64,000 nt of DNA from Alphaproteobacteria bacterium (GTDB lineage: Bacteria; Pseudomonadota; Alphaproteobacteria; GCA-2746255), in the NCBI GenBank assembly GCA_965249135.1, contig OZ252220.1:1280001-1344000 (forward strand). The letters run 5' to 3'. The notes below the pieces were generated by a model. It did not search any database and was not told the DNA's origin. It worked only from the letters and a program-made list of their open reading frames with translations. The first letter of the stretch is position 1. Each line of letters opens with the position of its first letter. Shown piece by piece: positions 2 to 18,084 of the stretch. The position numbers and the translations under genes are program-made.

Positions 2-991
2 AAGAAGGGCGTCTATGGCTCGGCCGCCTTCGTCGGCTGGTACAACGGGCATCCGGATTTCAGGAACCTCGACCCGGACCTCAACGTGTCTGCCGTCGCC
101 GTCATCGGGGTCGGCAACGTGGCGGTCGACGTCGCCCGGGTGCTGGTGAAGACCCATGAGGAGATGACGATGGCCGATCTGCCGGACTATGCCGATGCCG
201 TCATCCAAGCGGCCCCGATTAAGGACGTCTACATGTTCGGCCGGCGGGGGCCGGTGGACGCGAAGTTCACGAATGTGGAACTGCGTGAAATGGGCCGCCT
301 CGAGAACAGCGTGCCCATCGTCGATCCGGCCCAGCTGCCGGACGCGGTGACCGGCGATTACAAGGACCGGGACCTGCGCGTGCGGGAGAAGAACCTGGGT
401 ACGCTGAAGGAATTCGCCACGCGCAGACGTGAGGAAAAGCCGAAGCGGGTCCATTTCGTCTTCTATGCCTCGCCGGTCGAGATCCTAGGGGGGGACAAGG
501 TCGAGAGGCTGCGCCTGGAACGGACCCGCGTCGAGGAAGGCCGGGCCGTCGGCACCGGCGCGTTCTTCGAGATCCCATGCGGGGTCGTGATATCGGCCAT
601 CGGCTATCGCTCGGAGCCGATCGAAGGGGCACCCTTCGACGCGGAAAGGGGAATCGTCCCGAACGCGGAGGGCCGCGTGGCGGACGGGCTTTATGCCGTC
701 GGCTGGATCAAGCGGGGGCCGACCGGCACGATCGCCACCAACAAGCCGGACGGCAAGCTCGCCGCCGAGCAGATCCTCGCCGATGGCAAGGGGGGAAAGC
801 CCGGCCGGACCAGCTTCGAGAAGCTGCTGGATGGGCGCGGCATCCGGACGGTTTCGTTTGAGGAGTGGCAGAAGATCGAGGCGGTCGAGGAGGCCGCCGC
901 CACGCCGCCCGCGCCGCGCAAGAAATTCGTCACCGTTGAGGCCATGCTCGCCCAGCTCGATGGCGTGGAGGCGACCCGCGAGGTCGGCTGA
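2..991 (+). CDS. Ferredoxin--NADP+ reductase, adrenodoxin-reductase/FprA type (5' end outside window)
   Basis: Frame is open from base 2 (VYGSAAFVGWYNGHPD). Motifs GVGNVAVDVAR, GRRGP, GWIKRGPTGTI and PRKKF are typical of the family. Confidence 0.9.
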   Translation, partial: KKGVYGSAAFVGWYNGHPDFRNLDPDLNVSAVAVIGVGNVAVDVARVLVKTHEEMTMADLPDYADAVIQAAPIKDVYMFGRRGPVDAKFTNVELREMGRLENSVPIVDPAQLPDAVTGDYKDRDLRVREKNLGTLKEFATRRREEKPKRVHFVFYASPVEILGGDKVERLRLERTRVEEGRAVGTGAFFEIPCGVVISAIGYRSEPIEGAPFDAERGIVPNAEGRVADGLYAVGWIKRGPTGTIATNKPDGKLAAEQILADGKGGKPGRTSFEKLLDGRGIRTVSFEEWQKIEAVEEAAATPPAPRKKFVTVEAMLAQLDGVEATREVG

Positions 992-1035
992 AGAGGGAGT
1001 CGGCGTGGCTTAAAAAAGGGGACTTATATACGATT

Positions 1036-1710
1036 TTAGCCATCGCGCAGGATTTGCAGCATCCGCAGGCGCACGGACTCGATCTTGAGCAGTTCCTCGA
1101 TGAAGTACTCGCAGTTGTCGCCGCAATCTGTCTGGCGCCATCGAATGATGGCGTCGTAGTCGATCTCCAGCAGGTCACAGAACTCCCGCCCGGTCATCGC
1201 CTCATCGAAGGCTATTCGTCGCTTAAAGCCGTTCCATATCGCTTTCCGGTCATCCTGATTGAAGGCGCAGAAGTGCGCCCGGAATCGATACTGGATGTGC
1301 TGGGCGTTGTGCTCGATGAACCCATGCATGGCCTGGCGCTCTGCGCTGGCCTTCTTGGTGTCGAACACATGGCCGTCCTTCAACTCGACGATGTGGCATG
1401 TTTGCATGCCGCCACGGCGCTTGAACACCATGAAGTCCGGTTCCGATCCGGCGAAGTCCAGGGTGGTGCTCCGCTTGATTTGGCGCTTGCGGGCGAGCAA
1501 CACGCCTTCGGGCATGATCTCCTGCTCTAGGAAGGCGTCGAGGCCGGAGATGTTGGGAACCGCTGCCACGATCATTGCTTCGAGTTCCGAGCCCGACGAG
1601 ATGACGGCGGACTGAACCTTGCTGGCCAACTCGCCTAACGCGGCATTGCCGAACAGTCGCTCGTAGGCGCCCGACGTGTTCTTGGGCTTGGCGTTCCGAA
1701 GGCGGGCCAT
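1036..1710 (-). CDS. Putative type II restriction endonuclease (PD-(D/E)xK fold)
   Basis: 224 aa with EPDFMVF...IVELKDG, a PD..(D/E)xK catalytic pattern. Starts 5 bp after the methyltransferase stop. Its TAA stop lies inside the left TIR. Confidence 0.7.
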   Translation of the reverse strand: MARLRNAKPKNTSGAYERLFGNAALGELASKVQSAVISSGSELEAMIVAAVPNISGLDAFLEQEIMPEGVLLARKRQIKRSTTLDFAGSEPDFMVFKRRGGMQTCHIVELKDGHVFDTKKASAERQAMHGFIEHNAQHIQYRFRAHFCAFNQDDRKAIWNGFKRRIAFDEAMTGREFCDLLEIDYDAIIRWRQTDCGDNCEYFIEELLKIESVRLRMLQILRDG

Positions 1711-1715
1711 GGAGC

Positions 1716-2471
1716 CTAGTCGTTCAGGTCACAGCCGAGGAAGGTGCGCCGCCTGTTCCGCGCTGCCTGAAGCACAGAGAATGAGCCGGCTGCCGGGTCG
1801 ATCACAAAATCGCCTTCGTGGCTCACGGCGGCCATTAGCTCGCCCTGAAGGTCCACCGGCTTCGTGTGCGGATGGTTGCGTTGCGAGACCTGCTCTTGAA
1901 TCACGTCCGGGATGTTGTGAATCTTCCACACGCCTTTGGCTTTGCGCGGCTGCTTCTGCAAGACGACGCAATATTCCGCCCGGCGCCGGGTGCGATAGCC
2001 CATGCCGAAAGTGCCTTTGTCCCATGTCACCAAGTCCACGATGTCGAGACTCGTTCCGTCCAGCCAAGCATGGATGCCTTGGCAGAGATGAAACTTGTCG
2101 ATCCACAGGAACAGGTGGCCGGACGGAATCAGCGCCCGGTCAATGCCGCGCACGAAGCCGCCGATCACGGCGTCGGTCATCTGCTCCAAGGCACATCTCC
2201 GCTTGCCGCGGTCCTTGCCTTCGTTGCCGTAGGACAGTTTTTCGAGCACGCCGCGATATTGCGGATCAAGGAACGCTACGGGGATAGCGTTGGCCGGAAG
2301 CACGGACAGGAACTCAAGGCCGTCCATCTTGAGCCGGACGTTTGGCTTTAGCGCATCGGGCAGCGCTAATGGCGGCGCATGGACGGTTCTTTGCCCCGAG
2401 AACACCGTCGCCGTGAGCGTGTCCATCGTTGTGTCGATAGGCTCTACAAGCTGCTTGGCTTTGCGCGGCAT
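1716..2471 (-). CDS. Site-specific DNA amino-methyltransferase (N6A/N4C, beta class)
   Basis: Motif IV variant FLDPQY near the N-terminus; HPHTKP and motif I VIDPAAGSFS near the C-terminus (beta order). ATG at 2471 follows an AAGGGG RBS. Confidence 0.88.
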   Translation of the reverse strand: MPRKAKQLVEPIDTTMDTLTATVFSGQRTVHAPPLALPDALKPNVRLKMDGLEFLSVLPANAIPVAFLDPQYRGVLEKLSYGNEGKDRGKRRCALEQMTDAVIGGFVRGIDRALIPSGHLFLWIDKFHLCQGIHAWLDGTSLDIVDLVTWDKGTFGMGYRTRRRAEYCVVLQKQPRKAKGVWKIHNIPDVIQEQVSQRNHPHTKPVDLQGELMAAVSHEGDFVIDPAAGSFSVLQAARNRRRTFLGCDLND

Positions 2472-2481
2472 GGTGTTCCCC

Positions 2482-3417
2482 TTAATCGGCGGTGAGTCCC
2501 TTGTAGCCCAGCACGCCGCCCGCGTTGCGAAGGCTCTGGTCAATATGGGCCATGGTGCCCCAGTCGCGCCGATTGTGTCGAGTGGCAAACTCATCGACAT
2601 AGCGGCCCATGTGCTTTTCGGAGAAGTGGTGGAAGGTTCCGATGTAGCCGCGCTTCAGGAGCGCCCAGAACGACTCGATGCCGTTCGTGTGTGCCATCCC
2701 GCTGACGTATTCGCCGACCGAATGCTCGACGGTCTCGTGCGTGTATTCGCCCATGCCCTGATAGGCTTTGTGGCCGTCCGTGTAGATCGTTGTGCCGGGC
2801 TTGACCTCGGAACGCACCGCGCCTTGCAGGTGCGCCGCGTCCGTCCCGTCAATCGGGCGGGCTTTGATGCGCCCAGACTTGCGCTCGCGCATTCCGATAA
2901 CCGGCTGCTTCCCGACACCGCCGCGCCCCATGCGGAGCTTCTTGTTCGAGTGCTTGTTCTTTTCCTTGCCGCCGATATAGGTCTCGTCAACCTCAACCTC
3001 ACCAGACATCGGATTGCCGACGCCGGACTTGTTCAGCCACATCTCGCGGATGCGCTGCGAAAGATACCATGCGGTTTTCTGCGTGCAGCCAAGCTCGCGG
3101 GCCATCTGGCAACTTGAGATCGACTTCTTGGCAATGACCATGAGATAGATCGCGTAGAGGCATTTGCGTGGCGACAGGTTGGCCGAATGGAACACCGTTC
3201 TGGTCGTGACCGAGAAGTGCTTGCGGCAATCCTTGCAGCGATAGGGTTGGGGGTTCTCGTTCGCGACATGGCTGATCCGAACGCTCCCGCAGTGCGGGCA
3301 GTAAGGATCGTCGCCCCAGCGCATCCGCTCGATGTGAGCCCGCGCATCCTTGTCCGTCGGGAACCGCGCCATGAAGTCCCAGGTGCTCATGATCTCGGGT
3401 TTGTTGCGCTTCGCCAT
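2482..3417 (-). CDS. IS1595-family (ISXO2-like) DDE transposase
   Basis: N-terminal Zn ribbon CPHC...CKDC; catalytic motifs VEVDETYIGG, IYTDG and HTNGIESFW. ATG at 3417 follows GGGAGA. Confidence 0.95.
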   Translation of the reverse strand: MAKRNKPEIMSTWDFMARFPTDKDARAHIERMRWGDDPYCPHCGSVRISHVANENPQPYRCKDCRKHFSVTTRTVFHSANLSPRKCLYAIYLMVIAKKSISSCQMARELGCTQKTAWYLSQRIREMWLNKSGVGNPMSGEVEVDETYIGGKEKNKHSNKKLRMGRGGVGKQPVIGMRERKSGRIKARPIDGTDAAHLQGAVRSEVKPGTTIYTDGHKAYQGMGEYTHETVEHSVGEYVSGMAHTNGIESFWALLKRGYIGTFHHFSEKHMGRYVDEFATRHNRRDWGTMAHIDQSLRNAGGVLGYKGLTAD

Positions 3418-3439
3418 GTTCTGTCTCCCCATGGCTAGA

Positions 3440-3468
3440 AATATAGGGTTACGACGGCGTAATGTCAA
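3440..3468 (-). promoter_or_regulatory. Sigma70-type promoter for the transposase-MTase-nuclease unit
   Basis: Minus strand TTGACA-N17-TATATT, 22 bp upstream of the transposase ATG. Confidence 0.7.
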
Positions 3469-3487
3469 GAGACATAATATCTCGTTA

Positions 3488-3500
3488 TATCAATTAGTTA
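3488..3500 (+). promoter_or_regulatory. IHF-like binding site just inside the right TIR
   Basis: TATCAATTAGTTA matches the IHF consensus WATCAA-N4-TTR. Confidence 0.5.
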
Positions 3501-3534
3501 GACAGTATTTGGCTAAAATAGTATATAATCCCCT

Positions 3535-3565
3535 AAAAAAGGGTGGCCTGGGGCCGCCCTTTTTT
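3535..3565. terminator. Bidirectional intrinsic terminator downstream of tRNA-Gln
   Basis: AAAAAAGGGTGGCC-TGG-GGCCGCCCTTTTTT: GC-rich hairpin flanked by A and T tracts. Confidence 0.75.
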
Positions 3566-3566
3566 C

Positions 3567-3640
3567 TGGTTGGGGCGGCAGGATTCGAACCTGCGATCAC
3601 GGGACCAAAGCCCGTTGCCTTGCCACTTGGCTACGCCCCA
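3567..3640 (-). tRNA. tRNA-Gln (anticodon TTG)
   Basis: Minus strand reads TGGGGCGTAGCCAAGTGGCAAGGCAACGGGCTTTGGTCCCGTGATCGCAGGTTCGAATCCTGCCGCCCCAACCA, with D loop, T loop GTTCGAATC and encoded CCA. Confidence 0.97.
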
Positions 3641-3844
3641 AAACCGGTGCCCGGAAGGTAGGCGCAAAAAGCCCGCCTCCGCAAGGGAGGGCCCTTACCT
3701 TCCGGCCCGCCTTCGCGCCACCAGAAAGGGCGGCGAAGAATAAAGGAGGACCCGACCCGGAAGCGCCGGAAACGAGCCGGGCCTTAAGGGCACTACTCCT
3801 TGTGCCCGCCGGGGCGACCGGGGTAGGATTTCGGGGAGGGAAGT

Positions 3845-16904: not shown

Positions 16905-18084
<1,180 letters not shown>

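Follow-up and report, generated by a model that had tools for sequence, protein, structure and literature searches.

An IS1595-family transporter insertion sequence that probably carries a complete type II restriction-modification system as its passenger

Main finding

A 2,515-bp segment of an alphaproteobacterial genome is very likely a transporter insertion sequence (tIS) of the IS1595 family, still intact, whose passenger is a full type II restriction-modification (R-M) system of two genes. It occupies positions 1019-3533 of the window, that is, of the whole stretch of 64,000 nucleotides that was analysed, and is structurally intact. The element and its immediate surroundings comprise the following features (a dot marks features to which no strand is assigned).

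1011..1018, strand., left copy of the target site duplication (TSD), TAAAAAAG, read from the sequence and identical to 3534-3541
1019..1042, strand., left terminal inverted repeat (TIR), the cargo-side end, GGGACTTATATACGATTTTAGCCA; 24 nt, 88% complementary to 3510-3533
1036..1710, minus strand, putative type II restriction endonuclease of the PD-(D/E)xK type, 224 aa (PADLOC REase_II PDLC03487, 7.4e-41)
1716..2471, minus strand, beta-class N6/N4 DNA methyltransferase, 251 aa (PF01555, 2.7e-12; PADLOC MTase_II PDLC03271, 3.1e-80)
2482..3417, minus strand, IS1595-family transposase, 311 aa; zinc ribbon at the N terminus plus DDE domain (PF12762, 5.2e-44; PF12760, 1.4e-11)
3440..3468, minus strand, predicted sigma-70-like promoter, TTGACA-17-TATATT, 11/12 consensus, upstream of the transposase gene
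3510..3533, strand., right TIR, the transposase-side end, inverted-pair partner of 1019-1042
3534..3541, strand., right TSD copy, TAAAAAAG, read from the sequence
3535..3565, strand., host terminator-like hairpin (inverted pair of 14 nt, 93%), the A-run of which is the insertion target
3567..3640, minus strand, host tRNA-Gln (TTG), right neighbour of the insertion (ARAGORN)

Anatomy of the element

The TIRs match at 21 of 24 nt and form the longest inverted pair that an inverted-repeat search found between positions 800 and 3800, while the 8-bp TSD TAAAAAAG is perfect and present on both sides of the element. Together with the transposase domains, these are the features of the IS1595 family, and they bear out the original prediction of an intact IS1595 element. 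Its termini, GGGGATTAT and GGGACTTAT, fit what we take to be the end consensus of ISNwi1, which would place the element in the ISNwi1 group. It qualifies as a tIS by the location of passenger genes within its ends and by the occurrence of whole-unit copies with TSDs in relatives.

All three genes lie on the minus strand in the order transposase, methyltransferase, nuclease, with reading frames that are uninterrupted. The coordinates agree with the co-orientation and tight spacing proposed earlier, the gaps being 10 nt (2472-2481) between the transposase and methylase genes and 5 nt (1711-1715) between those of the methylase and the nuclease. The stop codon of the nuclease gene (1036-1038) falls within the left TIR, so that the cargo is indeed built into the element. 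The near-consensus promoter that had been noticed upstream was also recovered, as the single promoter-like site between 900 and 3700 against a mean of 0.7 in shuffled sequences, the site being a match to the consensus only. Insertion sequences do not usually have a strong promoter ahead of the transposase gene. An open reading frame for a controller protein is missing from the list of those in the element, as had been stated.

Insertion site and host genome

In three genomes of the same genus (G002, G003, and G005) the site is empty: the flanks are adjacent to each other and the hairpin beside the tRNA-Gln gene is uninterrupted. The undisturbed site of G002 has a single A-run where the TSD copy stands in the window. 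A homologous pair lacking TIRs and TSD was not found at this locus in relatives, because the locus is simply empty there. That an IS and a resident R-M pair came to lie side by side by chance was considered as well and is ruled out by the empty sites and by the whole-unit copies described below. No joints skipping the element, which would have pointed to excision or to polymorphism of the site, were listed in four runs; as these consist of contigs, the absence proves nothing.

The closed 2.1-Mb host genome contains one full copy of the element. A right-end remnant of 193 bp, 99.5% identical, is present at a second place in the genome and points to a recent second copy, or recent activity, of the element in this host. 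Five further TIR-bounded IS1595 elements with defence-type cargo are found in the same genome. Unrelated nucleases, one of the HNH type and one of another PADLOC REase_II family, are carried by other IS1595 elements of this genome.

Transposase, methyltransferase, and nuclease

The transposase scores 190.8 bits (2.8e-56) against NF033547, for which the cut-off is 75. In the methylase, motif IV (DPQY) precedes motif I (DPAAGSF), which is the beta-class order; with the MTase_II match listed above, this upholds the class assigned originally. The protein was aligned to the N4-cytosine methyltransferase 8s9n. It has both the SAM-binding motif I and the catalytic motif IV expected of a type II R-M methylase, the latter in the variant form DPQY instead of the usual (D/S)PPY, a form retained in 28 of 29 relatives. 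An HhaII-like (GANTC) identity, suggested by protein lengths only, is not supported: the methylase scores just 28.8 bits against the CcrM model.

The nuclease is encoded by a separate gene and has a nuclease catalytic motif, as expected of a type II R-M endonuclease. Candidate catalytic residues are E42, E44, P91-D92, and E109-x-K111, and the PD...ExK motif is nearly invariant in an alignment of 64 diverse sequences. The AF2 model of the protein (pLDDT 95.9) has its best fold match in EcoO109I, with a Z score of 7.9 over 182 residues, followed at Z 5-6 by BsaWI, Cfr10I, AvaII, BsoBI, Bse634I, and SgrAI. Type II restriction enzymes thus top the lists, with all matches below Z 8, a middling level by the rating of the tool. 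No Pfam or NCBIfam family matched the nuclease, a comparison with the sequences of solved structures (PDB) gave no match at E <= 10, and Foldseek with the model returned nothing at E <= 0.001. Both the methylase and the nuclease cover REBASE-derived type II PADLOC models over almost their full length. The REase_II match, the conserved motif, and the likeness of the model to type II restriction enzymes all support the PD-(D/E)xK assignment made at the outset.

Related elements and the exchange of modules

Homologous ends were found in related elements, several of which are present in multiple copies. In a Ruegeria MAG a related element occurs at 19 loci, 18 of which have both ends and 10 of these 18 perfect 8-bp TSDs; 13 copies are uninterrupted, measure 2747-2748 bp, and are 99.9-100% identical. 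A Longimicrobiales MAG contains four copies that are 100% identical over about 2535 bp, all four with TSDs. Perfect TSDs also surround six of the seven elements with a transposase of the type found in the window (that of the window itself, L009, L010, L012, L035, and L028). As far as sequence comparison goes, these copies establish that close and distant relatives transpose as whole three-gene units. The joint movement of the three genes in relatives and the empty sites of the congeners support the proposal of a mobile unit.

The methylase gene lies directly upstream of the nuclease gene in 51 of 53 related loci, and the two are likewise neighbours on conjugative plasmids of Campylobacter, where the homologues bear the annotations restriction endonuclease and DNA methyltransferase; the pair is thus co-inherited, as expected of an R-M system. 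Elsewhere, in 18 of 32 genomes, naked pairs were found that have neither a transposase nor recognisable ends, which indicates that the pair can do without the transposon; another four genomes keep transposase fragments only. Around the transposase-less pairs, a motif scan and an inverted-repeat scan for TIRs (22 loci) gave GC-rich chance matches only, at 14-15/16. Relics of the left end were seen past the nuclease stop codon at two transposase-less loci, L033 (13/17) and L037 (11/17), with a null P(>=11) of 0.003. The transposase frames of L010 and L035 are truncated, and in L012, L013, and L035 solitary methylase homologues occur among housekeeping genes.

The transposase of the Ruegeria elements shares 43% identity with that of the window and 59% with another transposase of the host genome, which has unrelated cargo. 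For the Ruegeria methylase and nuclease, the identity to their counterparts in the window is 83 and 79%, respectively, and in a methylase-plus-nuclease tree the Ruegeria pair falls inside a supported clade (SH-aLRT 95) together with window-type elements. The occurrence of this pair behind transposases that are only 43% identical suggests that the cargo is a swappable module. A control set of 29 IS1595 loci, drawn from as many other genomes of the Alphaproteobacteria, contained no methylase cargo downstream of the transposase. Counted were co-oriented open reading frames of at least 90 aa starting between -80 and +200 nt from the transposase stop codon, in downstream sequence of 1.3-1.46 kb at 28 of the loci and of 188 nt at L113.

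Alternative explanations

The element could be a recently immobilised fossil, a single insertion that is now only a resident R-M locus and no longer transposes. Its single full copy in the closed 2.1-Mb genome and the 3 mismatches in the 24 nt of its TIRs would fit this, as would the fate of the transposase in many relatives (fragments in four genomes, none in 18, truncated in L010 and L035) and the left-end relics at L033 (13/17) and L037 (11/17). We consider it unlikely nonetheless, as all three frames are intact, the TSD is perfect, the promoter is near consensus, and the 99.5% identical end remnant suggests a recent second copy. Imperfect ends, moreover, are normal for IS elements, going by the portion available of Furuta et al. 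(2010; PMC2853133).

Two other explanations concern the function of the cargo. TnsA of Tn7 has a restriction-enzyme fold, and this, with a nuclease gene that terminates within the TIR, might be taken to mean that the PD-(D/E)xK protein is a TnsA-like accessory nuclease that cuts the element ends, the methylase having some other role. Such a nuclease would be expected only alongside its transposase. The pair is found without any IS1595 transposase in the 18 genomes and on the Campylobacter conjugative plasmids, no such gene was found downstream of the transposase in the 29 control loci, other IS1595 elements of the host genome bear unrelated nucleases (HNH type, another REase_II family), and the partner that the nuclease does keep, in 51 of 53 loci, is the methylase; a TnsA-like role is accordingly hardly credible. 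Very improbable, too, is a non-defensive DNA-modification module, with an epigenetic or anti-restriction methylase and an inactive or methylation-directed nuclease. The unusual motif IV form DPQY and the solitary methylase homologues that L012, L013, and L035 have among their housekeeping genes could be read in its favour, against which stand the near invariance of the catalytic residues of the nuclease in 64 diverse sequences, the co-inheritance of the pair in 51 of 53 loci in typical type II order, and the nearly full-length matches of both proteins to type II models derived from REBASE.

Proposed mode of action

If the element is a tIS with a type II R-M passenger, the one promoter inside the right end would give a single transcript for transposase, methyltransferase, and nuclease. 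The nuclease start codon lies 5 nt past the methylase stop codon, and a ribosome-binding site belonging to it is not evident. Synthesis of the nuclease is therefore probably methylase-dependent, translation of the nuclease being coupled, most probably, to ribosomes fresh from the methylase. Such coupling would favour protection ahead of cutting in a new host and would do so without a controller protein. The transposase would bind the 24-nt ends and transfer the 2.5-kb unit as a whole to AT-rich 8-mers, with duplication of 8 bp. For the pair we infer cutting, methylation, defence, and addiction: it would restrict DNA that enters the cell unmethylated, and cells losing the element would be penalised by post-segregational cutting, by which the transposon may gain a way to persist. 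The methylase-nuclease module appears to be exchanged between IS1595 scaffolds and to outlive the transposase in many genomes.

Comparison with known systems

Passenger-carrying members of the IS1595 family, the ISNwi1 group, were reportedly dealt with by Siguier, Gagnevin and Chandler in 2009. Like IS1595 tIS of this group, the element combines a zinc-ribbon transposase, short TIRs, and an 8-bp TSD with extra genes downstream of the transposase gene. Accounts of the tIS concept, with ISNha5 as an example, are found in the accessible parts of two papers (PMC11891212; PMC3129680). The passengers named in the available review text are regulators, methyltransferases, and resistance genes (PMC11891212), whereas the element described here has a complete methylase-plus-nuclease operon. 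An IS1595 element with such an operon was not found in the literature searched; the 2009 paper on IS1595 may list such passengers.

Transposon-like R-M units have been described in X. oryzae and N. gonorrhoeae (Furuta, Abe and Kobayashi 2010; PMC2853133). In the accessible portion of that paper these units, like the present one, have R-M genes between imperfect inverted repeats, an 8-bp TSD, and a relative in which the site is empty; the Neisseria unit likewise holds a gene with a transposase motif. As far as the same portion goes, they have no evidently intact transposase and their mover was not identified by the authors, whereas here an intact IS1595 transposase is encoded by the first gene of the operon. 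With relatives at up to 19 loci per genome, flanked by TSDs, the mobilising enzyme and transposition of the unit as a whole are evident. The combination of a beta-class methylase and a small PD-(D/E)xK nuclease resembles type II R-M systems of the EcoO109I, Cfr10I, and AvaII group, which also provided the best fold matches. Unlike those systems, that of the window has no detectable sequence similarity to solved enzymes, no controller protein, and a motif IV that reads DPQY. As in Tn7-like transposons with defence cargo, a transposon serves as the vehicle of defence; in what is available of their description (Benler et al. 2021; PMC8649781), these are large, multi-gene, and site-specific, in contrast to the IS seen here, which measures 2.5 kb and has a single transposase and one compact slot for cargo. 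In conclusion, the kind is already known, both from passenger-carrying IS1595 elements and from transposon-like R-M units, and the present case is an unusually clean and well-documented one.

Significance

It has long been debated, mostly via indirect genome context, whether R-M systems are selfish mobile elements. For one 2.5-kb operon, the mobilising enzyme, the ends, the TSD, an empty site, and multi-copy relatives are now all visible, which makes the question directly testable, by way of transposition, phage restriction, and killing upon loss. The case also points to small IS elements, alongside large islands, plasmids, and transposons of the Tn7 type, as carriers by which defence genes are spread and exchanged across phyla, in that a bacterial defence system can hop as a single 2.5-kb unit. 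Some R-M loci of ordinary appearance are further explained as what is left of such transposons.

A wider reading can be put forward tentatively, as one that we hold to be possible though not the likelier outcome. In some marine, apparently sponge-associated bacteria, IS1595 elements of the ISNwi1 type may act as modular shuttles for defence genes, with one downstream slot in which R-M or other defence modules are swapped. Addictive cargo would promote persistence and amplification, to as many as 19 loci, and would be left behind as an ordinary-looking R-M locus once the transposase is lost. Insertions might favour solitary methylase genes of the element's own family and would thereby remove resident protection against addiction.

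Anatomy and insertion site of the element

The IS1595-family transporter IS at window positions 1019-3533 is 2,515 bp long and has a G+C content of 58.9 %, against 60.3 % for the genome. The 24-nt inverted repeats claimed in the original prediction are present (1019-1042 and 3510-3533; 21 of 24 positions complementary) and were returned by an inverted-repeat scan as the longest inverted pair within 800-3800. They are flanked by the expected 8-bp duplication, TAAAAAAG, which occurs at both 1011-1018 and 3534-3541. The space between them is filled by three co-oriented ORFs, separated by gaps of 10 and 5 nt as had been described:

3417..2482, minus strand, transposase, 311 aa
2471..1716, minus strand, methyltransferase, 251 aa
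1710..1036, minus strand, nuclease, 224 aa

The nuclease stop codon (1036-1038) indeed lies inside the left repeat. The single near-consensus upstream promoter was located at 3468..3440 on the minus strand (TTGACA-17-TATATT, 11 of 12 matches), and a consensus scan of 900-3700 found no other promoter-like site.

The search for empty sites proposed with the prediction, made with a 6-kb query against 30 relatives, was successful. The left flank of the insertion, the end of a ferredoxin-reductase-like gene, directly adjoins the tRNA-Gln flank in three of the five congeners (G002, G003 and G005), giving a clean empty site. Alignment showed this site to be a single uninterrupted terminator-like hairpin with an A-run matching the duplicated TAAAAAAG, into which the element has inserted. 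The flanks are ~56 kb apart in G001, and G004 gave a short left-flank match only. In the sequencing run holding 99 % of the sampled words, one contig spans 600-3342 without differences.

Contigs of three runs from other studies match both flanks closely, yet they agree with no more than the outer 10-13 nt at either end of the element (window 1019-1028 and 3521-3533), beyond which the sequence is unlike. In other populations, the insertion site may thus be occupied by a different or more diverged element. Immediately to the left of this site (window 993-1003), two other runs have contigs with an additional 21 nt that resemble a tandem duplication.

The closed 2.12-Mb genome, when examined for the other copies that had been envisaged, contained one full copy only, plus a partial right-end remnant of 309 bp at a second place (C1, about 1,058,225; L002 1502-1810). 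Of the remnant, 193 bp come from the right end (99.5 % identical) and cover the promoter and the first 25 codons; they are followed by 100 unrelated bases and then by a 14-nt tip of the left end. No target duplication was present at this remnant.

Family assignment of the three proteins

The first gene product contains an IS1595 DDE domain and a zinc ribbon, both scoring above curated cut-offs. The second is an N6/N4 DNA methyltransferase (PF01555) with a nearly full-length match to a REBASE-derived PADLOC type II methylase model (3.1e-80). Its motif IV (DPQY; residues 68-71, window 2258-2269) precedes motif I (DPAAGSF) in the protein, as in beta-class enzymes. Motif IV of methylases usually reads (D/N/S)PP(Y/F/W). 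DPQY, which aligns with SPPY of an N4-cytosine methyltransferase structure, is present in 28 of 29 relatives and is therefore a family trait rather than a sign of decay; as a conserved departure from the usual motif, it gives no guess at the target base. The host has a CcrM-like adenine methyltransferase gene of its own at window 17026-18063 (608 bits to NF050803, under the 830-bit cut-off); GANTC methylation in the host probably does not depend on the element. Because the methylase of the element barely matches the CcrM model, it likely recognizes a site other than GANTC.

The nuclease gave no sequence match in Pfam, NCBIfam or PDB. Its residues 4-215 matched a PADLOC type II restriction-enzyme model (7.4e-41), and its family is large: a 90 %-clustered collection contained 793 matches, and a 50 %-clustered library 461 representatives at E <= 0.001. 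Across 64 diverse aligned members, E42, E44, D92 (in P-D), E109, K111, D117, T118, K119 and K120 are invariant or nearly so, a pattern that represents a PD...ExK site. AlphaFold gave a confident model (pLDDT 95.9, pTM 0.89). Foldseek returned no match to it at E <= 0.001, with restriction enzymes at the top of the weak list. A wide structural search ranked EcoO109I first (Z 7.9, 182 residues aligned), followed by BsaWI, Cfr10I, AvaII, BsoBI, Bse634I and SgrAI (Z 5-6) together with unrelated helical proteins at similar Z, all of them middling scores by the tool's own guidance. The modelled fold supports the restriction-enzyme reading, of which fold evidence alone is no proof.

Other IS1595 elements in the same genome

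Eight IS1595-type transposase genes or fragments were found in the genome by tblastn. Besides the element in the window, five IS1595-type elements each enclose cargo between inverted ends of their own:

L086, 36 kb: type II methylase (9e-117) and a 219-aa ORF without known identity; 8-bp duplication present
L083, 890 kb: SPPY methylase and restriction enzyme (nuclease 9e-86, full length); duplication present
L090, 1.04 Mb: lone 545-aa methylase; no duplication
L089, 1.51 Mb: C5 methylase, HNH nuclease, Vsr and a 156-aa ORF; duplication 7/8
L087/L081, 674 kb: convergent 745-aa ATPase of PADLOC candidate defence family PDC-S46 (1.9e-256); duplication present

Four thus carry R-M-type cargo of different families and one the PDC-S46 ATPase; the duplication is a perfect 8 bp in three, 7/8 in one and lacking in one. 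The same-genus genomes, which are fragmented assemblies, have 0-1 IS1595 genes each. In a class-level control, an IS1595 transposase was present in 50 of 201 genomes, and at none of 29 control loci, from 29 other genomes, was a methylase located directly downstream of it; a P63C-domain ORF, a KilA-N ORF or another transposase was seen there. Set against the cargo of this genome, the control indicates that defence cargo is a feature of some lineages and not of the IS1595 family at large.

Transposition of the unit in relatives

Scanning species-representative genomes with the nuclease yielded 53 loci in 32 assemblies, nearly all MAGs (one with Spongia in its title). Most are Alphaproteobacteria, with one each of Longimicrobiales, Candidatus Poribacteria and Candidatus Latescibacterota. 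In 51 of the 53 loci, tblastn placed the methylase immediately upstream of the nuclease. Transposase, methylase and nuclease move as a unit in these relatives. A Ruegeria MAG contains 19 loci, 18 with both ends, among which are 13 uninterrupted copies (2747-2748 bp, 99.9-100 % identical) and five interrupted by another repeat; perfect AT-rich 8-bp duplications border ten loci. Several other Ruegeria copies have flank words in common, consistent with recombination between copies. A Longimicrobiales MAG has four copies that are 100 % identical over about 2535 bp, all with 8-bp duplications. Among elements with the window-type transposase, the duplication is perfect in the window, L009, L010, L012, L035 and L028 and imperfect in L013.

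The repeat that interrupts or abuts several Ruegeria copies is about 740 bp long and part of a ~1.4-kb insertion (L014 2501-3238; also L019, L024, L026 and L043); the carrier transposon is itself the target of a second mobile element.

At three loci (L012 2924-6191, L013 2923-6191 and L035 2661-5928), the three-gene element lies within a solitary methyltransferase gene that is 62-85 % identical to its own methylase and located among housekeeping genes, with 8-bp duplications. These represent two independent events, L012 and L013 having one site in common. Insertion into homologous methylase genes looks far commoner than expected at random, possibly as a consequence of an AT-rich target preference or of selection for knockout of a resident protective methylase.

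Loss of the transposase and exchange of cargo

Nine of the 32 assemblies have a transposase, whole or broken, beside the pair; four have transposase fragments only, one has a nuclease fragment next to another transposase, and 18 have the pair alone, with no terminal repeats found around it. A relic of the left end follows the nuclease stop codon in L033 (13/17) and L037 (11/17) and, by eye, in L034; scores of at least 11 occur at a frequency of 0.003 at random places in the same loci. Decay of a transposon therefore accounts for at least some of the naked pairs. A pair 36 % identical to that of the element is present without a transposase on Campylobacter conjugative plasmids, where the two genes bear the PGAP labels restriction endonuclease and DNA methyltransferase.

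The methylase and nuclease of the Ruegeria element share 83 and 79 % identity with those of the window, whereas its transposase is only 43 % identical to that of the window and 59 % to that of the 1.51-Mb element in the window's own genome. In a 29-row methylase-plus-nuclease tree, built with a quick method and midpoint-rooted for drawing only, the Ruegeria pair falls within a supported 14-row clade (SH-aLRT 95) alongside window-type elements, and transposase-less loci are scattered throughout. One R-M module is thus found behind two transposase lineages and, as the cargoes of the Ruegeria and 1.51-Mb elements are unlike, related transposases carry unrelated R-M cargo. Judged from these comparisons, the cargo is a swappable module.

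Proposed mechanism and relation to known systems

A single transcript would run from the mapped promoter through all three genes. The nuclease start is only 5 nt past the methylase stop and has no evident ribosome-binding site, so its translation may be coupled to that of the methylase, likely a device by which methylation precedes cutting without a controller protein. The pair would restrict unmethylated DNA and could stabilize the element by post-segregational killing.

IS1595-family IS with passenger genes had been defined earlier (Siguier et al. 2009); according to papers citing that work (PMC11891212 and PMC3129680 among them), the passengers include regulators, methyltransferases and resistance genes. 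Furuta et al. 2010 (PMC2853133) described R-M units that, like the element, are enclosed by inverted repeats and have 8-bp duplications and empty sites; one of these units had a transposase-motif gene. On R-M or solitary methylase genes linked to IS, they cite Siguier et al. 2009. The literature searched, in which Siguier et al. 2009 was represented through citing papers, contained no description of an intact IS1595 transposase followed by a complete methylase-plus-nuclease operon. The element belongs to a known kind, within which it stands out for its completeness and for the evidence that modules have been exchanged.
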